A stretch of DNA of 64,000 bases from Chloroflexota bacterium (lineage in GTDB: Bacteria > Chloroflexota > UBA11872 > VXNJ01). The notes below the pieces were generated by a model. It worked only from the letters and a program-made list of their open reading frames with translations. It searched no databases and was not told where the DNA came from. How positions within the stretch are numbered: position 1 is the first letter of the stretch; each line of letters begins with the position of its first letter. This document shows, piece after piece, positions 9,287 to 54,330 of this stretch. The translations under genes were made by a program, and so were the position numbers. The stretch lies in contig OZ253449.1 of assembly GCA_965261345.1 (NCBI GenBank), positions 1,251,317 to 1,315,316 on the forward strand, written 5' to 3'.

Positions 9287-12200
9287 TCAGGCGCCTGGCG
9301 CCCGGGCCAGGCTGACCTGGAATGTTTGCCCTGAAATTTCCAACGGCTGGCTCAATTCAGGATTCCTTAACCGGATCGGGTGGAGCGAGATCGCCAGGAC
9401 CTCGCTGGCAATTTCGGTGCCGTGTTCGGCCAGCAGCCGGTCGGCCTCCGGACCGGTCAGTGAGACCTCGATCCGGTCGGAGATTTCGTATCCGGCGCTG
9501 CGCCGCATTCCCTGGATCGCGTGAACGATCTCGCGCGAGAGGCCCTCGCGCCGCAGTTTGGCGTCAATCGCGGTGGTTAGGCCAACCGCAATTCCATCGC
9601 CGACCGCCACCGCCAGGCCCTCGATTCCCGAATAGCGGATTGCCAGGTCGTCGGCTAAGAGTATTTCCAAGCGACCGGCCAGCTCAATGGGGATTTCCTC
9701 GCCGGCATCGGCCTGGGCGGCAACCCGGGCCGGATCAAGCTCGGCGATCGCCGCCGCCGCCGCCCCGATGGACCGCCCGAAACGCGGTCCCAGCGAGCGG
9801 AAATTGGGTTTGATCTCAAACGAGAGCAGGCGCGAGGAGGAATCGGATACGCGCAGCGCCTTTACGTTCACCTCCGAGCAGATCAGATCACGGTGGCGGT
9901 CGATCGCCCGGCGGGCATTGCGGTCGGCGGTGCCGACCACGAGCTCGGCCAGCGGCTGGCGGGTTTTGAGGTTGGCCTGCGATCGGGCCGCCCGCCCCAA
10001 CGAGATCACCGTCCGCAGCACCGCGAACTCGGCTTCCAATCCAGCGTCGATCCGTTCGGGCCGGGGCTGGACAAATGGGCAGAGGAAGACGCTTGCCGGG
10101 GCGCCAGGGACGTGCGCCTCCAGGTTCTGGTAGAGCTCCTCGGCCAGGTGCGGGGCCAGCGGAGCCATCAACCGGACGATCCCGGTCAACACCTCGTAGA
10201 GCGTCGCGTAGGCCGCCGCCTTATCCTCGTCGGCCTGCGACCTCCAGTAGCGGCGTCGACAGAGTCGCACGTACCAGTTGGAAAGGTCGTCCCAGAAACG
10301 CTCCAACTGCCCGACTAAGGGATATACCCAGTAGTTCTCATAGGACGTCTGGGCGCTGGCGACAAGGGAGTTGAAACGCGAAATAATCCAGCGGTCAAGC
10401 ACCGGGCGGGAGCCCAGCGGCGGGGCCGCCGTCAACGGGTCGAACTGGTCGAGTTCGGCGTAGGTGAGGAAGAACGCGTACACGTTCCAAAGGGTTAGGA
10501 ACCGGCGCACCACCGCGCGCGCGGGCTGGTAACCGAAACGCACATTGGCGTTGGGGTTGGTGCCAACGTACATCCAGCGCATTACGTCGGCGCCCATCTT
10601 GGCGACCGCCTCGTCAAAGTCGATCGAATTTCCAAACGAGCGGTGCATCGCCTGGCCGTTCTGGTCCATTACCTTTTCGTAGACAAAGCAGGTCCGATAG
10701 GGCGCCCGGTCGGCGATCGCCACGCTCATAAAGAGCATCGAATAGAACCAGAGCCGGATCTGTTCACGCATCTCGGTAATAAAGTCGGCCGGGAACCACT
10801 GGTTCCAGGGCGAATCGGGGTCGGCCTGGTCGCCGCCGAGGTAATTTAGGGTCGAAAACGGCACGATTCCGGCGTCCAGCCAGCAGTCGCCGACCTCCTT
10901 TACGCGCTCGAGCTGGGCCCCGCAAACGCAGGCAATCCGGATCTCGTCGATCCAGGGTCGGTGCAGCTCTGGAAGGGAGTCGACCGCGGCCGGGTCGATC
11001 GCCCGCGCGCGCAGCTCGGCCAGTGAGCCGATGACCGTGAGCTCGCCGCAGTCGGGGCATTCATAGAACGGCAGCGGCAGGCCCCAGTAGCGCTTGCGCG
11101 AGATGGCCCAGTCGCCCATGTTCTCCAGCCAGTCGACCATCCGGGCCCCGGCACTGGCGGGCACCCAGTTGACGGTACGGGCGGCGGCGATCATCCGCGG
11201 GCGGATCTGCTCGCACGCGATGAACCACTCGTCGACCAGATTGAAGACGATCTCCTCTTTGCAGCGCCAGCAGACCGGGTAGCGATGGGTGTGGTCGCCA
11301 GCGACCAGGAGCAGGCCTTTGGCCTTTAGGCGATCCACAATGTAGGCGGTCGAATCGGCTACCCGGCGGCCGGCCAGTTCGCCGTAATCCTCCCGGTAGG
11401 CGCCTTCGCCATCAATGATTGAGAGCGCCGGCAGGCCCTCGCGCTGACCCAGCTCGAAGTCTTCGGCCCCCGATCCCGGGGCGATGTGGACGATCCCGGT
11501 GCCCTCGTCGCCGACGACTTCTTCCCAGGCCACGATCCGGCGCGGGACATCGCGCTGCGGGTCGAGCTCGTCCCAGGGGCCCTGATAGGTCAGGCCAAGC
11601 AGCTCTCGGCCGGGGAACTCCCGTTCGATTCGGGCCCCAGGCCCCAGGACCCGGTCTACGGCGGCGCGGGCCAACACATAGCGTTTCCCGTCCAGGCTGG
11701 CGCTAACGTATGCCAGGTCGGGGGCCACCGCGCAGGCGACGTTGCCAGCCAGGGTCCACGGGGTGGTGGTCCACACCAGCAGATGCTCACCCTCACGTTG
11801 CCGGATCGGCAAGGCCAGAGTGACGGCGGTGTGGGTGAGTACCTGATAGGTGTCGGTGCCGAGCAGTTCGTGCTGCGAAAGCGAGGTCCCGCAGCGGGTG
11901 CACCAGGGCATGACGCGATTGCCGCGGCGCAGCCAGCCGTTCTCGCTGCAGACCTTGAGGAAATGCCAGATGTGCTCGATGTTGGAATCGGAGTGGGTGT
12001 AGTAGGAATCGTCCCAGTCCATCCACATCCCCAGGCGCCGGGACTGGCCGGAAATCCGCTCGCCAAAGCGTTCCACCCGCGCCGCGCAGGCCCGCGCGAA
12101 GCGGTCCAGGCCGTAGGCTTCGATCTCGCGCTTGGAATTGAGCCCAAGCTCGCGCTCGACCTCGACCTCAACCCACAGCCCCTGGCAGTCAAACCCGTTC

Positions 12201-41534: not shown

Positions 41535-43445
41535 TTGTCCGGCGGAGTCAAGTCAAGCAGTGCGAACCGAGAAGGAAGGAAGGCCATTGTGAGTGTGGTG
41601 ACAGCAGTGGCGGCCCTTGCCGCCATCAGCTTGCTTTTCGCGATGGACCCAGGCGGGGCAATCGCCGAAAGCGGCTTTCCCGACTTCCGGGAGATGGACT
41701 GGAAGCAGCTGGCGGTCTGGGGCTTCCGCACGATAGGCGTAGTCGTAGCGCAGCTGCTCTTCATCGTGCTGTGGTTGTGGCCCAAGTTCCGGCCCCCGCA
41801 GGCGTCCGAGGAGCATCGACGCCCGTGGGACTCGGGGCCCCCACAGCCCGGTTCAATGCCCGCGGCGGCGGTATCTGCGCTGGAAGGCCACATGATATGG
41901 AGTCCGACGCTGCTGGCCTCCATCATCGAGATGTGCCAGCGCGGCACGCTGCGAATCGAAGCCGTCGGAACAAGGGTCGGCTTCCTGTACCGGCTGTCTA
42001 GGCAGGCTCCCGTACAGCATGACTGGGAGCGGACGATATGCGAAAGCATGCCGTCGCGCGCCACAACTGTTGATGCGCTCCATGAAGCGGTAAAGAAGCG
42101 CGAGGATGCCATCGGCGACCAGATAGGGGACTACCTGCAGCATCGCGGCCTTTTCCATGACAATCCGTTGCGAGTCAGGAGGGAAAACGACGACGATGCA
42201 ATCGGATGGGGGATGCTGGCCGGCGCCTTGATGGGCGTTGGCAGCGGGCTTTGGGCGGCTCTGTGGCTGGACCAGTGGTGGGCGAACGCCCTGATCGGCG
42301 CGTTCACAGGTTTCGCATATTTGATGATGGCGCCGTCGATACGAACCGGCATGGTGCCGACAACGCAGAGGGGAGCGCATGAGATAAGTCAGTGGCTGGG
42401 CTGGAAAAAGACTCTGGCCGGATCTGCCCCGCCCTATGCCCAGCACCAAGCTGCTTCCATGTTGCCCTATGCCGTGGCGCTGAATGTGGCCCAGCCATGG
42501 CTTGACGTGGCAGGCTCGGCTCCGCCGTGGTTCGGATCAGGCAGCGCATCCTCCCTGCAGGGCGCCGACCTGGACGCGGCCTATCACGGTTTCATGCACG
42601 CGCCGGAGTGGTACCTGAGCGGAAGGTCGGGCGATGCGGCGAAAGCGGCCGCCGGGATTGGTCATGAGCTCGAGCTACTCGAATTGGAGTCGCCGGATAC
42701 CGGGAAGACCGTGCACAGGGAGACCGCCGACGAAATCCAGGACATAGCCCGTGATCCGGATTCACAGCACAGTTCTTGGGAAGGTGCGCGACCGCCACCA
42801 TCGGGCGGGTTTCAACAGTACAAGGGAGAAAGACTGATTGAGGAACCGAAGAGCGGCGGGGGCCTGCGCGGGTGCTTCATATGGGTGGTAAGCCTGGTAG
42901 GCGTAGGGGTGGTGGTCTTGGTCGTCCTGTTCAGCCTCGATGTGGTCTCGCCTCGCGACAAACCGTGTCCCTTGGACTCTCCCGCGATCCCGACGCCCGT
43001 GCAGATTGCGGTGGTCGGCGACCTGTTCCGCGATAAGTGCGTGAGGGTCGGTGGCACGGTCGTGTTCCAGGACACCTACGAGCTGGTGGTGGAGATGAAT
43101 CGGGGCGAGTACGTGCAGCGGGTGAACGTACGCGACCCGTCGCAGGTTCTCGAAGCGATCCCTTTTGGCCGCGTGGTGACTCTGGCTGGGCGGCTCATGG
43201 TGGAGGAGGACGGAGCATACGCAGTCCACTTCGTACCGGACCATAGATCGGACCGGGAGTGGTGGCGGAACCTCCGGGACAACCTTGAAGAGTTGTTCCA
43301 GGTTGCTGTGGGTGCGACAGGCTTTGGTGATGCAACGGGCCCGGCAAAACTGGGTGTCGCTGTTCAACCGGTCAATTCACGCACCACCCGCGCGGTTCTG
43401 ATTGGATATAACGACGACCGGCAAATTCTCGTCGGGCGACGCTAG
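41535..43445 (+). CDS. Multi-pass membrane protein, DUF2207 C-terminal-region-like, with an extra C-terminal TM helix and small beta-rich domain
   Basis: 636 aa with a GTG start. It has hydrophobic helices and a region 'LLASIIEMCQRGTLRIEAVG...FLYRL' like the DUF2207 membrane/cytoplasmic module. Weak call by eye. Confidence 0.5.
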   Translation: MSGGVKSSSANREGRKAIVSVVTAVAALAAISLLFAMDPGGAIAESGFPDFREMDWKQLAVWGFRTIGVVVAQLLFIVLWLWPKFRPPQASEEHRRPWDSGPPQPGSMPAAAVSALEGHMIWSPTLLASIIEMCQRGTLRIEAVGTRVGFLYRLSRQAPVQHDWERTICESMPSRATTVDALHEAVKKREDAIGDQIGDYLQHRGLFHDNPLRVRRENDDDAIGWGMLAGALMGVGSGLWAALWLDQWWANALIGAFTGFAYLMMAPSIRTGMVPTTQRGAHEISQWLGWKKTLAGSAPPYAQHQAASMLPYAVALNVAQPWLDVAGSAPPWFGSGSASSLQGADLDAAYHGFMHAPEWYLSGRSGDAAKAAAGIGHELELLELESPDTGKTVHRETADEIQDIARDPDSQHSSWEGARPPPSGGFQQYKGERLIEEPKSGGGLRGCFIWVVSLVGVGVVVLVVLFSLDVVSPRDKPCPLDSPAIPTPVQIAVVGDLFRDKCVRVGGTVVFQDTYELVVEMNRGEYVQRVNVRDPSQVLEAIPFGRVVTLAGRLMVEEDGAYAVHFVPDHRSDREWWRNLRDNLEELFQVAVGATGFGDATGPAKLGVAVQPVNSRTTRAVLIGYNDDRQILVGRR

Positions 43446-43468
43446 CGGAAAAGGGGCCCGCCAAGTTG

Positions 43469-43687
43469 CTAACTGTCTGAGCTGCGTTTCGGCTTCCTTC
43501 GCCGCTTCCGGTCCGCATCGCGAAAGATCGCCCGCGCCAATTCCTTGGCGCTGCTAAGAAACTTAGCCGAAGGTTTGCCGCTGCTGCGTGCGCGGCGCGA
43601 CTGCTTCTTGGCGTCGCCTGACGAATCCTGCATTTGCCCGCCCCCTGTATACCACATATGGTAAAGGGGGTTAAGCCCTAGTAACAA
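43469..43687 (-). CDS. Small Lys/Arg-rich hypothetical protein (may start at Met 43633)
   Basis: Support is only an ORF with basic composition ('KKQSRRARSSGKPSAKFLSSAKELARAIFRDADRKRRRKPKR'). No family was recognised. Confidence 0.25.
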   Translation of the reverse strand: MLLGLNPLYHMWYTGGGQMQDSSGDAKKQSRRARSSGKPSAKFLSSAKELARAIFRDADRKRRRKPKRSSDS

Positions 43688-43821
43688 CTATCGCAGGGCC
43701 GAGCAAAGTGTCTAGGAAAGTAGATAATCCCCAAAACACTGGACATAATGCAGTTTATGTCTTGTCGGACGCCAATTCATTGCTTCGCCCAATCAGTTTT
43801 TTCGAATTCCCGCGTCAGCTA

Positions 43822-43848
43822 CCTGCATCTGCTAGCCTGCATCTGCTA
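43822..43848. repeat. Tandem direct repeat CCTGCATCTGCTA x2
   Basis: The two copies are at 43822-43834 and 43836-43848, separated by one G. They lie about 70 bp beyond the 3' end of the TIR gene, at the left edge of the low-GC islet. Confidence 0.85.
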
Positions 43849-43919
43849 AAACTCCACTTCGCCGGGTCAGCATCAAAATGGCCATTGTTGTGGCGTTTTA
43901 ACGTCCCGTAGCAGACTAG

Positions 43920-44702
43920 CTACGAAGGGTTGACCACCGAGGTAATCTCATCAGCGATTTCTTCAATCGTGTGCGTTGCGGTGCTCCGAGCCAGTTTGGC
44001 GGCGAGCGATGGACTGCGTTTGAGTAATTCTGCTTTGGTTAGGTTGTGCCAAATGGGCAGCAAAGCTTGGTCATCGTCTGAACTCAAGTCTCGGGAAACC
44101 AGCCCATCCAATTCGTACTGCGGCCACTCTTTATCGAAGAATTCCGGCGAAAGGACAACTACGCCGAAACGACTATTGGCCAATCCCGCGTCAATCTTCC
44201 TTCGGAGGTTTCCGCCAATTCGCAATTCGAATTCGTCGAACCAAACTCGCAAGTCTCGATCCTCGAGAGCCTGTGCCAGTGGCCGCACAATATCGTCCTT
44301 GTTTTCGCTGGCGTAAGAAATGAATACATCGAAAACTTGACTGGGTCCACCATTTTTTCCATTTGACTGGATTGACTGGTCGCGGACCAAAGAAGGGACT
44401 GATGAAAGCGGGCGCTCTCGAATTTCGGGTAGCGGACGAGGCAATATCCGAATGGAAGCGTTTGTACGCCCTTTTAGGCCCTGCATATCGACCGCCACAT
44501 GCCAATTCCCAGAGTGCGGTATTGCCAGGTGCACGGGTGATCGCCTAGCCATCCCACCTACATATTGGTGCTTGCGCCCGCTTTTGTATGCAGTGAAATT
44601 CGAGCTGTCCAATAGTTGGACGTTTGCCGCGTTCCCAGTGAGGGTGACTTCGACGACTTCGCCGCGTTCGCGGTATCCAATGTTGCTGTGAATGAAATTC
44701 AA
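43920..44702 (-). CDS. DUF1883-like N-terminal domain fused to a TIR domain
   Basis: 260 aa with a TTG start. The N-terminus 'NFIHSNIGYRERGEVVEVTLTGNAANVQLLDSSNFTAYKSGRKHQYVGG...PHSGNWHVAVD' is DUF1883-like. The C-terminus 'VFDVFISYASENKDDIVRPLAQALEDRDLRVWFDEFELRIGGNLRRKI...SRFGVVVLSPEFFDKEWPQYELDGL' is a TIR fold with the conserved Glu in W-x-x-E-L. Confidence 0.85.
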   Translation of the reverse strand: MNFIHSNIGYRERGEVVEVTLTGNAANVQLLDSSNFTAYKSGRKHQYVGGMARRSPVHLAIPHSGNWHVAVDMQGLKGRTNASIRILPRPLPEIRERPLSSVPSLVRDQSIQSNGKNGGPSQVFDVFISYASENKDDIVRPLAQALEDRDLRVWFDEFELRIGGNLRRKIDAGLANSRFGVVVLSPEFFDKEWPQYELDGLVSRDLSSDDDQALLPIWHNLTKAELLKRSPSLAAKLARSTATHTIEEIADEITSVVNPS

Positions 44703-45382
44703 TTCGCCGGTGCCCCGCGATACAAATGTGGGAACAAACTTAGCAATTGGACTTTGTGATTCGCCTGTCTTCCGGAGCCTTTGCGAACCGCCGAATTAAT
44801 CACTGCGCTCGCGGCACTGCACAGTCGTTCGGCTTGATTGGCGTTGCCTGTTTCGCTCGAGCGGTCGAGGCCTTGAATCGGGATTGTTCAAGAGAAAGTC
44901 AATCGTCATTCGGCATTAATCACGTTATGGCTAATCTGGTTTTTCTGGCAGCAGAGGTCGATGATAGGTAATTCTCCATTGAGTTCAAGCTTAGTCGGGG
45001 TGGAGACCATCCCGGACCCGAGCAAATCTGCCGATTTGAATAATACCGGCCTCAATGAACTGCCGGCCACGCTTGTGTGCGAATTGCACGCGGAGCGATT
45101 TGAGCAAATGTGACTGATCGCACCGAATTGAAATTTCTATAGCGAATATATATCCGTGCGGTAATTGATCGTCTGCGCGGCAATTGGCGCTCGGGCGATC
45201 AGGAGTCTGCGAGAAAGCCTCACACGTTGGATTTCTGGTCCAAAATTGATCCCGAATTGACGGGGTTTCGACCAAGAGTTTGACCCTTTGTTGCCAATGA
45301 TGGATCCACTCTGGCAATCCAGCGTCTTGACACCCATTAATCGAAACTCACCCAGGATTAGGTTCGGATTATTTGAGGCCCT
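44703..45382. other. 680-bp spacer without a convincing ORF between the divergent TIR and RT genes; candidate promoters and/or RT-associated ncRNA
   Basis: No convincing ORF is present (the 74-aa and 108-aa track ORFs lack any recognisable features). It contains several local hairpins, e.g. CGCTCGAGCG at 44855-44864 and GTGC-gaatt-GCAC around 45077-45089. G+C is low. Confidence 0.3.
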
Positions 45383-46888
45383 ATGAGCAAACTTGATGGC
45401 CCTTGCGATCTATTGGAACTTTCGGCCAATTCGGCTCGCGAGGAATTGTTGCGATCGGAAAACTATTGCACTTTTGATTTGCCCGATTACTTCACGTTTT
45501 CCGCATTGATTGCAGACGCACACTCTGCTGTGACTGGAAAGACTCGACGGGAGGTAGGCAGCAGCAAAGCGCGTGATTATGAAGACGTCAATTTTTTGGT
45601 CGCACACAACAAAGATGGGCGACTGGCGTGGCGCCCTTGGGCACTCGTCCATCCAGTCCTGTACGCGGCCTTGGTGGACGTGATAACCATAGATGCGAAT
45701 TGGGAGTTGATTCAACGGCGATTTTTCAAATTGAATTGCGAGCCCGATATTCGATGCTCCAGTCGTCCAGTTGTCGGAATGACTTCCAAAATGCGGAAGG
45801 ATTTGGAAATCCACCGGTGGTGGGAGGGGGCAGAGCAGGCTTCAATCGAATTGGCGCTGCAATATTCTTACGTCGTGCATACCGACGTCACCAACTGTTA
45901 TCAATCTATTTACACGCATTCGATCGCCTGGGCAATTCACACAAAGGAAGTTGCTAGAGCGAATAAAGACGATCAACAATTGATTGGAAATGTCATTGAC
46001 AAATATTTGCAGGACATGTCCCTTGGGCAAACGAATGGAATTTGCCAAGGCTCGATATTGATGGATTTGATTGCCGAATGCGTTCTGGCTTACGCGGACG
46101 AGCAATTGGCATCGAATCTAAAGGGTAGCTACGATGGGAAATACAAGATCTTGCGACACCGCGATGATTACAGGATTTTTGTCAATGATCCTAAATTGGG
46201 CGAAGAGATATTGAAAGCGCTTTCCGATGTGTTGAGAGCATTGGGAATGTCCCTAAACTCCGGCAAGACGGAAACCAGTGACGACGTGATCGGGGCAGCG
46301 ATTAAGCGTGACAAACTTGCGTGGCTTTGGCGCAATAAACCAGAGGGCGATCTGCAGAAAAAACTGTTGGCGTTACGGGCGCATGGACTCGAGTATCCAA
46401 ATGGCGGATCCGTAGAGACCGGGCTGCATGAATGCTACGAGAATTTCAATGGCGGGGTAATGGAGGGGGCAATTCTCCCGACGATTGCCATCGTGGCGGA
46501 TATCGCGGTTAGGAATCCGCGCGCCTATCCGATTGCGGCATCGCTAATCAGCTTGTTGATTGGGCAATTGGAGGAAGGGAGTGCTAAACAGGACGCAATG
46601 AGAGCCGTTGAGGATCGTTTTCGTCGCGTTCCGAAAGCGGAATTGATGCACGTTTGGGTAAATAGGGTCGGAATAAAGCTTGGATATGACGCGTTCGCCG
46701 AATCTTCATTGTGCAAATCTGTCAGCAATGGGTCGGCGGAGATTTGGGCACACGATTGGATTTGCGATGCCCAACTGAAATCAAAAATGTTGAGTGGAAC
46801 CATCGTTGACAAAATGCGGATTGCCGAGTTGCCAGAGATGGTGTCAAAAGAAGAGGTAGAGGAACTCACCTTTGTTTATGACGGATAA
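45383..46888 (+). CDS. Reverse transcriptase, Abi/UG-like (defence-associated class), with helical C-terminal domain
   Basis: 501 aa, with GAGG 8 nt upstream of the ATG. RT motifs are 'YVVHTDVTNCYQSIYTHSIAWAIH', 'GQTNGICQGSILMDLIAECVL', 'ILRHRDDYRIFV' (catalytic DD) and 'MSLNSGKTE'. There is no group II maturase/endonuclease region and no retron-type features. About 190 aa of alpha-helical C-terminus follow. Confidence 0.9.
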   Translation: MSKLDGPCDLLELSANSAREELLRSENYCTFDLPDYFTFSALIADAHSAVTGKTRREVGSSKARDYEDVNFLVAHNKDGRLAWRPWALVHPVLYAALVDVITIDANWELIQRRFFKLNCEPDIRCSSRPVVGMTSKMRKDLEIHRWWEGAEQASIELALQYSYVVHTDVTNCYQSIYTHSIAWAIHTKEVARANKDDQQLIGNVIDKYLQDMSLGQTNGICQGSILMDLIAECVLAYADEQLASNLKGSYDGKYKILRHRDDYRIFVNDPKLGEEILKALSDVLRALGMSLNSGKTETSDDVIGAAIKRDKLAWLWRNKPEGDLQKKLLALRAHGLEYPNGGSVETGLHECYENFNGGVMEGAILPTIAIVADIAVRNPRAYPIAASLISLLIGQLEEGSAKQDAMRAVEDRFRRVPKAELMHVWVNRVGIKLGYDAFAESSLCKSVSNGSAEIWAHDWICDAQLKSKMLSGTIVDKMRIAELPEMVSKEEVEELTFVYDG

Positions 46889-47074
46889 ATTATTCGAAAA
46901 ATCCGGGTTGTGACGTTTAAGTGATTGTCAGATGCAGATAGCGGTAGTGAATGCAACGAACCGTCGATTGGAAGTAAACATAATCACGTTTATCTCTAAT
47001 GCCTATCGACTCCGAATGAAGGACTGTCGATAGAGGGCCAGGCGGCCTTGCCGCTAAACGTTTAAGCCGTTACT

Positions 47075-47233
47075 GATCACGTCCCCTGGAGTGGTGTAAG
47101 AGCACCAGCTTGATCAACTAAGCCAACGCGATGACAAAGGGCCATCGTGTAAACCTCTACGGAGTCACTTCACTTACTTCGTCGAGGAACCATCGATGGC
47201 CCAACTTGATTATCAGACTTTGCTTGCCATTAT
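47075..47233 (+). mobile_element. IS256-family 5' end fragment (terminal repeat plus the first ~12 codons of the transposase), truncated
   Basis: This segment is the near-exact reverse complement of 49852-50010, the transposase-start end of the complete IS256 copy. It includes 'MAQLDYQTLLA'. Homology stops where the IS3-type terminal repeat begins. Confidence 0.75.
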
Positions 47234-47266
47234 TGGCCGGCTCCCCCTCATTGGTACCAGAGGGAA
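47234..47266 (+). repeat. Orphan IS3-family terminal inverted repeat
   Basis: TGGCCGGCTCCCCCTCATTGGTACCAGAGGGAA is identical to the outer end of the IS3 copy at 57411-57443 (reverse complement). Only the repeat is shared. Confidence 0.7.
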
Positions 47267-47760
47267 GGGAAGAGAGCGCCGGTATGGCTGGGGTGCGCGG
47301 GGCGACCAGATCAGCAACGTCCTGACAATCAAAGCGCTTCCCCTGGTCTAAGAGATTGGACAGGGCCTCATCGACATCGGCCTCCATGGTAGTGGCCGCC
47401 AATTGCAGGATGCGCAGGTAATTGACGTCGGCGCTGTGCTGACCGCGCCACTGGCAAAGCGCATCGTAGGCGCGGCGGAAGGTAAGGGTGGGGAAGAGCT
47501 GCTCGCGCCAGCGGTAGCGGGCAAAGGCGCCGGGCTCCAAGCACCAGCGATCCGATCACGTGGCGGTAATTGACGCGGGCCCGCAATGCTCCCGTGGCGC
47601 GCTCTAGGCGCTCGACCAATCGGCCCTTGTAGTACACGTCCAGGTGATCGGCATAGAGACGGACTTCCACCTTCTGTCCGATCAGGCGTGGTGGTACCGT
47701 GTAGGTGCGGCCCGAGATTTGGATGGTGCTCCATTTGCGCACCACCGCGCATTGACTCAC
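47267..47760 (-). pseudogene. IS21-family IstA transposase C-terminal fragment with frameshift
   Basis: Two overlapping frames read 'ISGRTYTVPPRLIGQKVEVRLYADHLDVYYKGRLVERLER...NYRHVIGSLV' and 'GAFARYRWREQLFPTLTFRRAYDAL...VNYLRILQLAATTMEADVDEAL'. This is the typical IstA C-terminal region. Confidence 0.7.
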
Positions 47761-48600: not shown

Positions 48601-50010
48601 CGGGCGCACGACCTTCCATTTCCCTGGAGGGCGCTACGGCCCCCGGCGGCGGTTGCTACCCCGCCGGCAATGCCAGCGGGGACTGCCTCTCTCCCGGAGA
48701 TGGGGGTTGGCCGATTAAGGCCATCGAGTGCCTGGACATATAGCGGCGCTCGGATGCGAGCCATTCGTCGTTCTGCTCAATTAGGACCGCTCCGATAAGG
48801 CGCAGGACCGAGTCATCGTCGGGGAAGAGCTGTACTACCCGGGTGCGGCGCTTTAGCTCGCCCATAACGCGCTCTAGGGGATTGGTGGACCAGATCTTGC
48901 GCCAGTGCGAAGGCGGGAAGGCGGTGTAGGCAGTCAGGGCGATCTCGGAGTCCTCGAGGATCGTGGACAGTTCCGGATACTTGCGCTCTAAGCGATCGGC
49001 GAAATCTCCGAAGGCGTCCATGGCGCTCTGCTTGTCAGCCTGCCCAAACAGCGACGCCAGTCCGGCTGCCACCAGCCCGCGGTCGCCGCTTCTGACCCTT
49101 GGTAGAAGATTGCGCCCAAAGTGTGTCCTGCACGTCTGCCAGGCGGCCTCGGGAATAAGCTTTGTCACCGCGTTGCCGATGGCTTGGTTCCCATCGGAGA
49201 TCACCAGCCGCACGCCGGATAGACCGCGCGTTACCAGGGAGGCGAGCAAGTCCTCCCCGAAGCCCTGCGCTTCGCTGTGGCCGATTGCAAGCCCCAGCAG
49301 CTCGCGATGGCCGTTCTCGTTTACGGCCATTGCTATGCCCACCGCCCGCGACCTTACCGCATGCGCGTTTCGGGCTTTTACGTAGGTGGCGTCGAGATAG
49401 AGGTACGGGAAGGTCGTATGCGAGAGATCGCGTTCGCGGAAGGCATTGACCAGCTCGTCGATGCCTTTGCAGATCCTTGACACCTCGGACCTGGAGATCC
49501 CGGCGTTTACTCCCATCGCCTCCACCAGCTTGTCGACCTTGCGGGTGGAGACGCCCTTGCTGTAGGCGGTCATGATGACGCCGTAGAGGGCCTGGTCGAT
49601 GCGGCGCCGCCGCTCCAAGAACTCGGGGTAGTAGCTGCCTTGGCGCAGCTTGGGCAGGGCAATCTCGATGTCGCCCGCCCGGGTGGAGAGGGTGCGCTTG
49701 CGCGAGCCGCCAAAGCCGATTGCGACGCTCGCCGTTGCGCTCGTGCGGTTGGGCGCCGATGTTTTCGGCCAGGCCGGCGTCAATAAGTTCCTGGTAGGCG
49801 TGCCGTACGGCGCTGCGGACGAATTCGCTGCTGTCAAACCCTTGCTTGGCGATAAGGGCAAGCAAGGTCTGATAATCAAGTTGGGCCATCGATGGTTCCT
49901 CGACGAAGTAAGTGAAGTGACTCCGTAGAGGTTTACACGATGGCCCTTTGTCATCGCGTTGGCTTAGTTGATCAAGCTGGTGCTCTTACACCACTCTAGG
50001 GGACGTGATC
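48600..50010 (-). mobile_element. IS256-family insertion sequence (about 1.4 kb); left boundary approximate
   Basis: It carries a mutator-type transposase. The right end is defined by comparison with the truncated copy at 47075. The left end is estimated from a weak terminal-repeat match (TTTCCCTGGAGGGCG versus GTCCCCTGGAGTGGTG). Confidence 0.75.
48656..49889 (-). pseudogene. IS256-family (mutator-type) transposase, interrupted by one frameshift near 49700-49740
   Basis: The N-terminus 'MAQLDYQTLLALIAKQGFDSSEFVRSAVRHAYQELIDAGLAENIGAQPHER' is in one frame. The rest, 'GGSRKRTLSTRAGDIEIALPKLRQGSYYPEFLERRRRIDQAL...YLYLDATYVK...VISDGNQAI...WQTCRTHFGRNL...STNPLER', is in another. Confidence 0.8.
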
Positions 50011-51477
<1,467 letters not shown>

Positions 51478-52238
51478 CTATGGCTACAAGCGCATCACCG
51501 CCCTGCTTAAACGCTCGGGCTGGAAACTGAACCGCAAGCGGGTCCTGCGCATCTGGCGCCGGGAGGGACTATAAAGTCCCGATCCGGAGCGCCAAGCAGT
51601 CGCGCCGCTGGCTCGAGGGCGGGAGATCAACCCGCCTTATCTCCGAGCGTCCCAACCACGTCTGGGCCTACGACTTCGCCTACGCGCGCACCGAGGACGG
51701 CCGGCCCCTGCGGATCCTGACCGTAGTCGACGAGTTCACCCGCCAATCCTTAGCGGTAAGGGTCGAGCATACGTTCCCTGCCCGCGGCGTGATCGAGACA
51801 ATCGCCGACCTCATGCTCGCCCACGGGGTCCCCGGGCACATCCGCTCTGGCAACGGTCCCGAATTTACTGCCCACAGCGATACGGAAATGTCTATCGGCA
51901 AATCAGGTCAAGACCGTCTACATCAAGCCCGGCGCCCCCTGGGAGAACGCCTATGCGGAATCGTTCATCTCCAGGCTCCGGGACGAGCTCCCGACCGCGA
52001 GATCTTCTACACGCTCGTAGAAGCCAGGGTGATGCTGGAACGCTTCCGGATCGACTACAGCACCGTGCGTCCACACTCAGCGCTCGGTTACCTATCGCCC
52101 CTGGAAGCCATCGAGGCGGCGGCGTGAGGGATCAACTGCCGGTCGCAATCCGGCTGCTGCTGGCCGGCCCAAAAATCAGCCTCGCCGCCAACAAGACAAT
52201 GTCTCAAACCAACTGGTACCAAAACCGGGGACCTGCCA
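51478..52238 (+). mobile_element. IS3-family remnant (3' two-thirds of orfB plus right terminal repeat), with frameshifts
   Basis: It reads 'YGYKRITALLKRSGWKLNRKRVLRIWR', 'HVWAYDFAYARTEDGRPLRILTVVDEFTR' and 'FRIDYSTVRPHSALGYLSPLEA' across several frames. It ends with ...GGTACCAAAACCGGGGACCTGCCA, which matches the end of the IS3 copy at 56079. Confidence 0.75.
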
Positions 52239-52248
52239 ATCGACGAAT

Positions 52249-52536
52249 TTGGCATGTGGAATTACGACCGCGATGCCCTTCTTCTCGCTGATCTCAGAAC
52301 GTTACCTAAGGAGCGGCACCATCCTTACATCCAACAAAGGCATCGCCGATTGGGGTGATGTCCTGGGAGATCACGCCGTAGCCTCCGCGATCGTCGATCG
52401 CATGCTCCACCACTGCCATACCATCACCATAAAGGGAAGCAGCTACCGACTAAAAGAAAAGCGCCGGGCCGGTTTGATTGCACCGGTTTCTGCTCCAGTC
52501 GTGGACAAAGACCAGATCCTGGCCGACGATTCCTAA
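52249..52536 (+). pseudogene. IS21-family IstB helper ATPase, C-terminal fragment
   Basis: 'FFSLISERYLRSGTILTSNKGIADWGDVLGDHAVASAIVDRMLHHCHTITIKGSSYRLKE' is the conserved IstB C-terminus. The N-terminal two-thirds are missing. Confidence 0.7.
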
Positions 52537-52944: not shown

Positions 52945-53253
52945 ATGGCTTTTTGTGATCTATTGCGGTGGGAATGGGACCTTGCAAAAGAACAGGTCAA
53001 CATTCGCAGACATGGAATCGGGTTCGGGACCGCAATCAAAGTCTTTCAAGACCCCTTAGCTGCAACTCGCTCGGATCCGCATAAAGAGGAACGGCGATTG
53101 CGAACAATTGGGGTCATTGGGAATGTGACCGTCTTAGTCGTCCACACAGTTCCCGAATACGACGAAATCACTGCAACAGCGGTGGGTTGGATCATCAGTG
53201 CCAGGAAAGCAACAGCCGGAGAGAGGAATGCATGTGAAACAGAAGCGAACTAA
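52945..53253 (+). CDS. brnT: BrnT-type toxin (DUF497)
   Basis: The pattern 'WEWDLAKEQVNIRRHGIGFGTAIKVFQDP...TVLVVHT...IISARKATAGER' is typical of DUF497/BrnT. Confidence 0.8.
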   Translation: MAFCDLLRWEWDLAKEQVNIRRHGIGFGTAIKVFQDPLAATRSDPHKEERRLRTIGVIGNVTVLVVHTVPEYDEITATAVGWIISARKATAGERNACETEAN

Positions 53254-53512
53254 GCCCGTGGAGCAATGCGAAAGCGAAATTGCGCGATTGGCGAACTTGC
53301 CGGACGACCAGATCGATACGACGGATATTCCAGAAATACTCGATTGGTCGGACGCTCGTAGAGGCGTGTTTTATCGGCCTTTAAAGCAACAGATAACACT
53401 GCGATTGGATGCGGACGTCATCGCGTGGTTCAAAGCGCATGCGCCGAACGGCCGCGGATATCAAACGCACATTAATCGCGCGTTACGAGAGCATGTTATG
53501 CGATCGCGCTAG
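53228..53512 (+). CDS. brnA: BrnA-type antitoxin
   Basis: It has 'DTTDIPEILDWSDARRGVFYRPLKQQITLRLDADVIAWFKAHAPNGRGYQTHINRALREHV'. ATG 53228 is preceded by GGAGAGAGG and overlaps the brnT 3' end. Confidence 0.8.
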   Translation: MHVKQKRTKPVEQCESEIARLANLPDDQIDTTDIPEILDWSDARRGVFYRPLKQQITLRLDADVIAWFKAHAPNGRGYQTHINRALREHVMRSR

Positions 53513-53682
53513 CTTAATGTCCAAGCCGCGATCGTGAAACCAAAACAATCGTTTCAATTTATCGATTTGTCCGGCACCACGATCACGATAGTTCAGCCAT
53601 TGAATTCGCGGAAGGGAAGACCGTCACCGATCCCTCCGCACAGATCCGGAAGTGCCCGTTAGCGAATCCGAACTTACCTAAT

Positions 53683-53904
53683 GTGGTTGACGGCAAAGCG
53701 CGCGGCGCGCCATGTGTGGAAGATGGGGGATTGGGGCAAGAACTGATCAAACGGCGCTTGGAACGGGACGGGTGGTACTTGGATCGTCACGGGTCAAATC
53801 ACGACATATATTGCCATCCAACGATTGCGGGGATCATCACTTTGCCTCGCCACCAGGCCTTGTCAATTGGTTTCGCCGGGACAATCGCGTCTAAAGCACG
53901 TTAG
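53683..53904 (+). CDS. hicA: HicA-type mRNA interferase toxin (true start probably internal, e.g. GTG 53716 or TTG 53731)
   Basis: It has 'LIKRRLERDGWYLDRHGSNHDIYCHPTIAGIITLPRH' and lies directly upstream of a HicB-like gene. Confidence 0.7.
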   Translation: MVDGKARGAPCVEDGGLGQELIKRRLERDGWYLDRHGSNHDIYCHPTIAGIITLPRHQALSIGFAGTIASKAR

Positions 53905-53922
53905 GAGAACTAGGCTGCAAAC

Positions 53923-54330
53923 ATGAATCGGTATCCTGCCCTAATTGATGGCAGTGCTGGAGCTTACGGAGTCGTATTCCCCGACGTACCGGGCAATTGC
54001 GCCATGGGAAACACGATTGACGAAGCGCTATTGGATGGCGAAGACGCGCTTCACGATTACGCAGTTGAAACCAGGCGCGACGGTGTTTCGCTTACTGAAC
54101 CGACTCCATTGGAATCAATTGAAACTTCAACGGGTACCAAATTGGTGTCCATTCCTCCAATTGAGCCTTCCGCGAAGAGTGTTCGGGCCAGCCTAACGTT
54201 AGACGCAAGCGTAGCTGAATTCATCGACAACGAAGCTCGGCGCCGAGGGATGACTAGGAAGTCGTACATAACCTGGATGGCCCGGCGTTTCGCAGCAAAA
54301 AAGGGGGATGAATTATTGGGTCAGTCTTGA
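53923..54330 (+). CDS. hicB: HicB-family antitoxin with C-terminal ribbon-helix-helix-like DNA-binding tail
   Basis: It has 'YPALIDGSAGAYGVVFPDVPGNCAMGNTIDEALLDGEDALHDY' (HicB fold) and 'LDASVAEFIDNEARRRGMTRKSYITWMA'. Confidence 0.8.
   Translation: MNRYPALIDGSAGAYGVVFPDVPGNCAMGNTIDEALLDGEDALHDYAVETRRDGVSLTEPTPLESIETSTGTKLVSIPPIEPSAKSVRASLTLDASVAEFIDNEARRRGMTRKSYITWMARRFAAKKGDELLGQS

Follow-up and report, generated by a model that had tools for sequence, protein, structure and literature searches.

Introduction

The closest described relative of the reverse transcriptase (RT) gene considered here is Abi-P2, which is known from the P2-EC30 and P2-EC58 prophages of Escherichia coli and from a solved structure (PDB 7R08). 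Resistance to phage T5 came in that case from a single gene of a P2 prophage, encoded at a locus that is AT-rich relative to its host (PMC8632793). Mutation of the priming tyrosine (Y61F) abolished DNA synthesis by Abi-P2, and the tyrosine of the YRDD active-site box touches the 3′ end of the DNA both in AbiK and in Abi-P2 (PMC9508834). For the TIR gene that lies next to our RT, the nearest described proteins are the bacterial NADases BtTir, AbTir, PdTIR and TcpB (BtpA), which have been characterised mainly as isolated TIR domains; in AbTir, residues W204 and E208 are required for cyclisation and catalysis (Manik et al.). Two further points of reference are the Thoeris type I systems, with their ThsA and ThsB components, and the type XII retrons, in which RT and TIR are fused in one protein.

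A new defence module, composed of an Abi/UG-class RT and a separate DUF1883-TIR protein, had been predicted in a 64-kb stretch of bacterial DNA (hereafter, the window). Here we compare this locus with the described systems and with its relatives in genomes and metagenomes. The comparison points to a simpler picture, where two immune genes of separate families very probably just happen to adjoin in a region full of mobile elements.

Results

A Compositionally Foreign Islet in a Defence Island

The segment 43690-47074 of the window has a G+C content of 0.498, which is the minimum for all segments of the same length (3385 bp) across the 64 kb, which average 0.616 (sd 0.035); only 0.2% of them are as low. 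The dip originally described is therefore real, although the flanks stand at about 0.59-0.63 and not at 0.65. By parts, the values are 0.491 for the RT gene, 0.506 for the intergenic spacer, 0.521 for the TIR gene and 0.452 for the final 46889-47074 region, against 0.627 in the adjoining DUF2207 gene and 0.631 in the IS region; GC3 is 0.55 in both the RT and TIR genes versus 0.71-0.77 in their neighbours. The content of this islet (~3.4-3.6 kb) amounts to two intact genes in divergent orientation, just as reported at the outset: an RT of 501 aa (45383..46888, plus strand) and a DUF1883-TIR protein of 260 aa (43920..44702, minus strand). As both genes (GC3 ~0.55) and the spacer are alike in their low G+C, they may have arrived together; such a shared composition is compatible with a functional unit, yet it is no evidence for one.

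At the left junction of the islet (43446..43919) the G+C content goes from 0.63 to 0.54. Its sole ORF encodes 72 aa (43469..43687, minus strand) and gave no Pfam or PADLOC match, and the nucleotide similarity to other TIR loci stops before this junction. The right junction (46889..47074, 186 bp, G+C 0.452) ends exactly at the end of an insertion sequence, a 159-nt terminal fragment of the IS256 family (47075..47233, plus strand) that forms the right border of the islet. This fragment is an inverted copy of positions 49852-50010 (inverted repeat I1, 159 nt, 98% complementary), which are in turn the end of an intact IS256-family copy with its transposase at 48656-49954 (Transposase_mut, 1.3e-104). 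An IS110 transposase (50109-51254) and two toxin-antitoxin pairs, BrnT/BrnA and HicA/HicB (52945-54330), complete the surroundings, together with IS21-type fragments, so that the cluster of IS elements and the two toxin-antitoxin pairs mentioned in the original prediction were recovered. A neighbouring protein of 636 aa gave no PADLOC match. The setting is an IS-riddled defence island, within which these ~3.6 kb stand out as foreign in composition.

The RT Gene Belongs to the Abi-P2 Family

The RT gene opens with an ATG codon, with a GAGG motif 6 nt 5′ of it. The PADLOC model AbiP2 (PDLC03744) matches the protein with 548 bits (E=4.8e-165), aligning aa 10-494 with positions 7-482 of 489, and the second-best model, RT_UG14, reaches 168 bits (E=7.8e-50). 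A sequence search against structures recovers Abi-P2 itself (PDB 7r08, E=1.4e-68, residues 11-464 against 36-502 of the chain), and the identity to the RT of phage P2-EC30, the prototype of the family, is 31% at 96% coverage. A Pfam search identifies RVT_1 in the palm/fingers core (aa 155-299, 45845..46279, plus strand), which is followed by a C-terminal helical domain of the Abi-polymerase type (aa ~300-494, 46280..46864, plus strand), included in the AbiP2 match as far as aa 494, whereas the alignment with 7r08 reaches aa 464. Judged by its sequence, the RT is a full-length member of the characterised single-gene Abi-P2 family, within class 1 of the UG/Abi RTs. The assignment to the Abi/UG class, the three RT motifs quoted from the translation, the helical C-terminal domain and the lack of retron or group II hallmarks (21 bits with the retron model, versus a cut-off of 235) had all been correctly anticipated. 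The novelty of the module is not supported: a clean fall into a characterised single-gene family, with homologues not enriched for TIR neighbours, had been named beforehand as an argument against it, and both hold for this RT (for the neighbours, see below).

The residues expected for catalysis are in place. Y36 (codon 45488..45490, plus strand) aligns with the priming tyrosine of Abi-P2, Tyr61 in the numbering of 7R08, and together with D168 of motif A (45884-45886, plus strand) and with D261 and D262 it is invariant in 27/27 sequences (alignment A1). The active-site box H259-R-D261-D262 (46157-46168, plus strand) reads HRDD instead of the usual YRDD, and among 120 homologues residue 259 is Y in 112, F in three and H in only three. 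This histidine is also present in the homologues P0002 and P0004 and, being common to relatives of 69% and 48% identity, it is better seen as a maintained variant of a clade than as a fresh lesion. With a histidine at the position of the YRDD tyrosine, full activity is not guaranteed.

At 97% of the 70 loci compared, the Abi-P2-like gene is poorer in G+C than its flanks; the difference averages -7.4 points, and a relatively low G+C can be regarded as a trait of the family. Nucleotide similarity of the RT gene to its relatives is restricted to 45394-46886; its closest relatives share no neighbour gene with it, the homology stopping at the ORF borders, and neither a conserved partner protein among the relatives' neighbours nor a non-coding RNA in Rfam was found for this locus. 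Clustering of the neighbours at Abi-P2-like loci yielded hsd genes only, in a subset of them. As a separate observation, Abi-P2 homologues recur inside type I restriction-modification operons (28/97 loci).

The DUF1883-TIR Gene Belongs to a Large Conserved Family

The second gene has a TTG start codon, which aligns with the N-termini of its homologues. The protein begins with an all-beta DUF1883 domain (aa 1-89, 44436..44702, minus strand; Pfam 1.5e-27), similar to PDB 2b1y (Atu1913, 9.5e-13), for which the AlphaFold model gives eight strands with a pLDDT of ~90. A linker predicted as disordered (aa 91-120, pLDDT <50 in the same model) leads to a TIR domain (aa 121-257, 43932..44342, minus strand; Pfam TIR_2 at aa 126-222, 1.1e-20), which is of the BtTir/AbTir/PdTIR/TcpB type as seen in its matches to PDB sequences (7uxr 5.9e-47, 8g83 3.4e-45, as well as 3h16 and 4lqc; E 1e-35 to 6e-47). 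Foldseek comparisons of this domain with the same four proteins gave target-normalised TM values of 0.80-0.86, at 44-52% identity. The glutamate motif reads W193-P-Q-Y-E197-L, so the predicted catalytic residue is indeed kept, but in a WxxxE motif and not in the WxxE originally described. W193 (codon 44124-44126, minus strand) and E197 (codon 44112-44114, minus strand) are the equivalents of AbTir W204 and E208; both are found in 20/20 sequences of alignment A2, where Y196 is likewise invariant.

Full-length homologues with 60-73% identity occur in many phyla, and the protein can be classified as a member of a very large and highly conserved DUF1883-TIR family, for which our literature searches found no study. 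In PADLOC, the best match is PDC-S66 (9.9e-63), and ThsB1 (PDLC00417, 2.6e-35) matches as well, in both cases through the TIR half only, and the same half shows weaker matches to PADLOC RT-TIR_XII (1.9e-16) and NCBIfam Retron_TIR (5.8e-24). Nucleotide similarity to relatives is restricted to 43931-44705. DUF1883-TIR genes in general have a G+C content close to that of their flanks (difference of -1.6 points), and they are mostly solitary, lying beside ThsA only occasionally. The surroundings of close homologues include toxin-antitoxin genes and further TIR genes, along with integrases and IS elements, and one homologue on a Methylobacterium plasmid is located among arsenic and redox genes.

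The Spacer and the Pairing Are Not Conserved

Between the two divergent genes there is a spacer of 680 bp (44703..45382, G+C 0.506), which had been put forward as a possible conserved feature of the system. It has 0 Rfam matches at E<=1, and neither blastn nor tblastx found a match to it in any of the related loci fetched. Its RNA folding is not unusual (z-scores of -0.90 and +0.41), its promoter-like sites are not above the expectation from shuffled sequences, and its ORFs gave no Pfam or PADLOC match, a 108-aa one obtaining a single weak, multi-stretch match among 1.8 billion representatives. Overall, the spacer showed no sign of a conserved gene, of an RNA family or of a structure.

The expected conservation of the DUF1883-TIR gene as a neighbour of the RT did not hold either. 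None of the 97 Abi-P2-like loci contains a relative of this gene, or any TIR gene detectable with a TIR-domain HMM (E<=5) or with eight diverse TIR/ThsB queries (E<=1), a search in which the positive controls worked. Reciprocally, an Abi-P2-like RT is present in 0/96 DUF1883-TIR loci, nor does it occur in two further annotated plasmid loci of this family. The pairing is missing from the closest relatives of the RT (69% identity, L001/L002; 49%, L163) as well as from those of the TIR protein (68-73%, L164-L166). At least 2 kb were available on both sides for 54 RT loci and 22 TIR loci in the genome and metagenome scans, the TIR loci being often short (only 22/80 metagenome loci reach this length). 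Only three relatives of the RT exceed 45% identity, P0004 on a 3-kb contig among them, and a pairing confined to a very narrow lineage is conceivable, if very improbable.

Discussion

Two known families that are never found together in ~190 related loci are most likely independent neighbours. Most probably, then, the RT and the DUF1883-TIR protein are two stand-alone immune genes that happen to adjoin, each of which would protect alone, and not a new RT-TIR system. Going by the E. coli P2 enzyme of known structure, to which it is homologous, the Abi-P2-type RT would form trimers or hexamers, use its own tyrosine Y36 as the primer for DNA synthesis and make random-sequence ssDNA without a template through D168, D261 and D262, and this synthesis, upon infection, would lead to abortive infection. 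In the case of the TIR protein, homology suggests that the TIR domains would self-associate once activated and that the W193/E197 site would cleave NAD+ into ADPR or a cyclic ADPR isomer, the output being either direct NAD+ depletion or a signal to an effector whose gene lies elsewhere. Sensing or assembly is the likely role of the all-beta DUF1883 domain.

Could both genes instead constitute one lineage-specific two-gene system, where activation of the RT or its protein-linked ssDNA switches on a TIR NADase effector? The genes are immediately adjacent and similar, together with their spacer, in foreign composition; adjacent divergent genes could be regulated from one common region; Abi-P2 as described comes with no assigned effector; and in retrons a TIR effector may be linked with the RT or fused to it, the retron models RT-TIR_XII and Retron_TIR matching the TIR half. 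These retron-type matches, however, touch the generic TIR domain only, the divergent arrangement with its 680-bp gap makes no operon, and in P2 prophages Abi-P2 acts through one gene alone (PMC8632793). Together with a homology that ends at the ORF borders, an unconserved spacer and a pairing absent from all the RT and TIR loci surveyed, closest relatives included, this renders a two-gene system very improbable. A functional coupling limited to the HRDD subclade of Abi-P2, with the TIR NADase as the Abi-P2 effector or the ssDNA licensing TIR assembly, is scarcely credible.

Another reading keeps the RT apart and assigns the TIR protein, as a ThsB-like sensor, to a system of the Thoeris type with its effector (ThsA or another protein binding a cADPR isomer) elsewhere in the genome. 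The ThsB1 match agrees with it, as does the activation of ThsA by 3′cADPR from this TIR clade (BtTir/AbTir type); moreover, in locus L120 the homologue immediately precedes a canonical ThsA (PDLC00407, 3.9e-197) and a second ThsB-like gene, and about a dozen homologous loci carry extra TIR or TIR-SIR2 genes. Nevertheless, canonical ThsA is present in only 1/96 homologous loci, most members being solitary, and a phmmer search with the L120 ThsA against all ORFs of the 64-kb window (E<=10) found no ThsA-like ORF, nor is there a second TIR in it, so this reading seems unlikely. We are similarly doubtful that one or both genes lack a working role in defence, the RT being impaired by having HRDD in place of YRDD and the DUF1883-TIR protein serving a purpose other than defence, a suggestion already made for AbTir. 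H259 does replace the tyrosine contacting the DNA 3′ end, and it is rare among homologues; conservation in the DUF1883-TIR family is higher than defence genes usually show, and its members barely differ in G+C from their flanks; the Methylobacterium homologue lies in a context of arsenic and redox genes, and AbTir apparently has functions distinct from Thoeris (Manik et al.). On the other hand, both ORFs are full length with all their other catalytic residues intact, the histidine is maintained in relatives of 69% and 48% identity, and close TIR homologues sit among toxin-antitoxin genes, mobile elements and other TIR genes.

With two independent genes as the preferred explanation, the adjacency of RT and TIR at this locus is no ground for counting a new defence system. 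Its contribution is a divergent homologue of Abi-P2, of the HRDD variant, and one more DUF1883-TIR gene, which means little beyond annotation. What could deserve the attention of specialists is the frequent presence of Abi-P2 inside type I restriction-modification operons, and the large conserved family of DUF1883-TIR proteins.

Comparison with Known Systems

The likeness to type XII retrons is that of an RT and a TIR, the latter weakly similar in its domain, in one locus. Our RT, however, is not of the retron type and its locus has no msr/msd or other Rfam match, and whereas the retron proteins are fused, RT and TIR are here separate and divergent, with a pairing that is not conserved. PDC-S66, a PADLOC candidate for a single-gene TIR system and no more than a candidate, for which we found genome-annotation studies only, shares with the TIR protein its single-gene architecture. 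Only positions 137-280 of the 282 in the PDC-S66 profile are matched, by aa 112-257, so that the N-terminal half, which is DUF1883 here, differs.

With Thoeris type I, the TIR protein has in common its ThsB-like score in the TIR half and a homologue that holds the position of ThsB beside a canonical ThsA, but ThsA is absent within the window and the members of the family are mostly solitary. The TIR domain itself is closest to BtTir, AbTir, PdTIR and TcpB, with the Trp and Glu of WxxxE kept, and the difference from these proteins is the N-terminal all-beta DUF1883 domain with its disordered linker. As for Abi-P2, the prototype resides in a P2 prophage, whereas our RT occupies a chromosomal IS-rich island of a genome with 62% G+C, diverges from the prototype to ~31% identity and carries the HRDD box in place of YRDD. 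Both are nonetheless alike as single-gene cassettes, AT-rich relative to their hosts and placed in variable or mobile regions, and they correspond over the RT and helical domains in a full-length profile match, Y36, D168, D261 and D262 in the RT of this locus being the counterparts of the priming and catalytic residues of Abi-P2.

Composition and setting of the islet

The islet at 43690-47074 shows a G+C content of 0.498, and no 3385-bp window within the 64 kb goes lower (mean 0.616, sd 0.035). Its two ORFs are present exactly as the original prediction described them: a reverse transcriptase (RT) of 501 aa on the forward strand (45383..46888) and a DUF1883-TIR protein of 260 aa on the reverse strand (43920..44702), which starts at a TTG that lines up with the N-termini of homologous proteins. 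These genes are divergent, 680 bp apart, and both have a GC3 of about 0.55, versus 0.71-0.77 in neighbouring genes. The surroundings, formerly estimated at about 65% G+C, are in fact lower, with flanks of 0.59-0.63. The expected setting of insertion sequences (IS) and toxin-antitoxin pairs was found, with an IS256-family transposase (48656-49954), IS21-type fragments and an IS110 transposase, together with BrnT/BrnA and HicA/HicB (52945-54330). Convergent with the TIR gene, at 41535-43445 (+), is a gene whose 636-aa product is a predicted membrane protein carrying DUF2207 at its C-terminus (3.8e-11). It has a host-like G+C of 0.627 and no PADLOC match, and we treated it as a host gene outside the islet.

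The spacer between both genes (44703-45382) was considered, and rejected, as a non-coding RNA (no match in Rfam, unremarkable folding energy z-scores) and as a hidden gene, as its ORFs have no match in Pfam or PADLOC and tblastx found nothing similar among the 166 collected loci. An exhaustive phmmer search with its 108-aa ORF was also negative. The idea of a long spacer conserved next to the RT was abandoned, since no collected locus matched it.

An RT of the Abi-P2 family

Against the PADLOC AbiP2 model, the RT gives a full-length match (E=4.8e-165, 548 bits; next family, 168 bits), its residues 11-464 align with the solved Abi-P2 structure 7R08 (E=1.4e-68), and the founding RT of phage P2-EC30 shares 31% identity with it over 96% of the length. 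Homologues of Abi-P2 are numerous, at more than 3,500 protein clusters. Its placement among the Abi/UG-class RTs was thus correct, as was the reported absence of retron and group II hallmarks, but the full-length AbiP2 match means that the enzyme is not an unclassified one.

Abi-P2 forms a trimer, potentially a hexamer, and its template-free DNA synthesis is primed on Tyr61 (Figiel et al., PMC9508834). This tyrosine aligns with Y36 of the RT, which is invariant in 27 homologues, and so are D168, D261 and D262. The active-site box reads HRDD, and the sole deviation is H259 (window 46157-46159), in the place of the YRDD tyrosine that touches the DNA 3′ end in AbiK and Abi-P2 (PMC9508834). Among 120 homologues, this position holds Y in 112, H in 3 and F in 3. 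The histidine is common to the RT of the window and to the homologues P0002 and P0004 (69% and 48% identical to it, respectively), and defines a small HRDD subclade among Abi-P2-like RTs.

A DUF1883-TIR protein

Pfam recognizes DUF1883 (aa 1-89) and TIR_2 in the second protein, and in its AlphaFold model a disordered linker (aa 91-120) joins an all-beta N-terminal domain (pLDDT ~90) to the TIR domain. The latter is 44-52% identical to BtTir, AbTir, PdTIR and TcpB/BtpA, with target-normalised TM-scores of 0.80-0.86. W193 and E197, both invariant in the homologue alignment, are the counterparts of AbTir W204 (cyclisation) and E208 (catalysis). The glutamate had been rightly noticed, although the motif is W193-x-x-x-E197 and not W-x-x-E-L. 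The PADLOC models PDC-S66 (a single-gene TIR candidate) and ThsB cover the TIR half only.

This family is very large (>7,000 clusters at E<=1e-5 among 8,000 candidates scored) and strongly conserved, with identities of 60-73% across Acidobacteria, Chloroflexota, Planctomycetota, Bacteroidota and Verrucomicrobiota, and DUF1883-TIR is one of the TIR architectures that a review names as predominant in prokaryotes. In RefSeq these genes carry just the label “DUF1883 domain-containing protein”. The exact 260-aa protein is absent from a collection of 15 billion proteins where the neighbouring RT is present and the closest relative shows 73% identity; its TTG start may explain why gene callers would have overlooked the ORF.

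Neighbours of each gene in other genomes

We collected 97 loci of Abi-P2-like RTs (80 from species-representative genomes, 14 from viral contigs and 3 from contigs of relatives with 69% or 49% identity) and 96 loci of DUF1883-TIR genes (80 from metagenome contigs, 13 from viral contigs and 3 from contigs of 68-73% relatives). Both flanks reached 2 kb or more in 54 RT and 22 TIR loci among those from genomes and metagenomes. Through tblastn and profile searches, a DUF1883-TIR relative was found in 0/97 RT loci and an Abi-P2-like RT in 0/96 TIR loci. Neither a TIR-domain-only HMM (E<=5) nor eight diverse TIR/ThsB queries (E<=1), which did recover their positive controls, detected any TIR in the RT loci. 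By the rule of three, 0/97 sets the frequency of pairing below ~3%. Plasmids and viral contigs were discarded as carriers of the pair: plasmid matches were obtained for the TIR gene alone, which is solitary there, and viral contigs carry one gene or the other but not both together. In annotated phage records, the RT matches genes for RTs, in P2-type phages and in others.

A different association was frequent for the RTs. In 28 of the 97 loci (L004, L005, L007, L008, L011, L014, L016, L018, L021, L022, L029, L031, L033, L034, L040, L044, L046, L048, L052, L055, L056, L065, L067, L069, L076, L078, L079 and L081), the RT sits inside a type I restriction-modification (R-M) operon, at ~10001-11470 in most of them, after hsdM/hsdS and before hsdR, all on one strand. 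Some hsd gene occurs within 10 kb of the RT in 37/97 loci. The window contains no hsd genes, and its RT lies outside any such operon. A 442-aa gene just upstream of the 69% RT relative (L001:5453-6781, L002:2684-4012), which shares its strand and follows an HTH/Peptidase_M78 gene, was rejected as a partner because neither the window nor any of the other 95 RT loci has it; its product has no Pfam or PADLOC match.

The DUF1883-TIR genes are mostly solitary in their 96 loci. In each of the three closest relatives (68-73%), the stretch directly downstream holds a convergent gene for a pentapeptide-repeat protein of 330-400 aa (L164:6820-8034, L165:6741-7943, L166:9291-10286), in L166 with an IS21 insertion in between; the window has no such gene.

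Origin of the islet

To the right, the islet is bounded by a 159-nt IS256-family end whose first base is 47075 and which shows 98% complementarity with 49852-50010, so the original right flank was lost to IS activity. Nested IS debris lies to the right of the islet (47075-47233 and 49852-50010; 47157-47760; 51789-52536). The 159-nt end is an inverted duplicate, truncated by frameshifted IS21-type istA fragments, and farther right there are an IS110 transposase, an rve_3 fragment and an IstB C-terminal fragment. A tRNA integration site was rejected, with none found between 30 and 64 kb of the window.

Abi-P2 genes are below their flanks in G+C in 97% of 70 loci (mean difference, -7.4 points), and in hosts above 58% G+C they average 0.52, against 0.62 for the flanks. 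The deficit of the DUF1883-TIR family is much smaller (-1.6 points). In the window, the TIR gene, the spacer and the RT are AT-rich to the same degree, and a donor of lower G+C may well have supplied them all in a single piece.

Two probably stand-alone genes and their known relatives

The best-supported reading, which we hold as probable, is that the islet carries two independent stand-alone defence genes. By homology, the RT would perform a protein-primed, template-independent synthesis of ssDNA leading to abortive infection, and the DUF1883-TIR protein would act as an NADase. Other readings, not mutually exclusive with this one, have been weighed. The original prediction of an RT-TIR module, even if restricted to one lineage, is now very improbable: the pairing occurs in none of the other loci collected, and nucleotide similarity to the closest loci is limited to the individual ORFs (45394-46886 for the RT, 43931-44705 for the TIR gene), indicating that each one travels as a single-gene cassette. 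The equal AT-richness of both genes and the spacer points to co-transfer within a defence island and not to co-function. It is also unlikely that one gene is impaired or has a non-defence function; H259 speaks for this, the invariant catalytic residues of both proteins against it. We give a similarly low chance to the TIR protein being an orphan ThsB with its effector elsewhere in the genome: in its favour, the ThsB model covers the TIR half; against it, the 64-kb window holds no ThsA-like ORF or second TIR.

Both genes belong to kinds already known, an Abi-P2 polymerase and a DUF1883-TIR protein. The geometry of the RTs within R-M operons resembles that of the PrrC anticodon nuclease, a resident of the EcoprrI locus, and by this analogy hints at a guard-type link to restriction. 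As for Thoeris, a complete canonical locus was found in L120 (1334-4189), where the DUF1883-TIR gene is followed by ThsA (E=3.9e-197) and a second ThsB-like gene. A cluster of neighbours of the DUF1883-TIR gene in seven loci, at first taken as “ThsA/SIR2”, proved to be a single-linkage chain with canonical ThsA in L120 only and additional TIR genes in the rest. About a dozen DUF1883-TIR loci carry extra TIR or TIR-SIR2 genes. Some have a gene for a 457-aa TIR_2+SIR2_2 fusion after the DUF1883-TIR gene (L133:6382-7752, L137:6689-8059, L162:794-2167) or a ThsB-like 207-aa gene ahead of it (L114-L116, L123). Thus the DUF1883-TIR family, though mostly solitary, overlaps with Thoeris-like multi-TIR loci.
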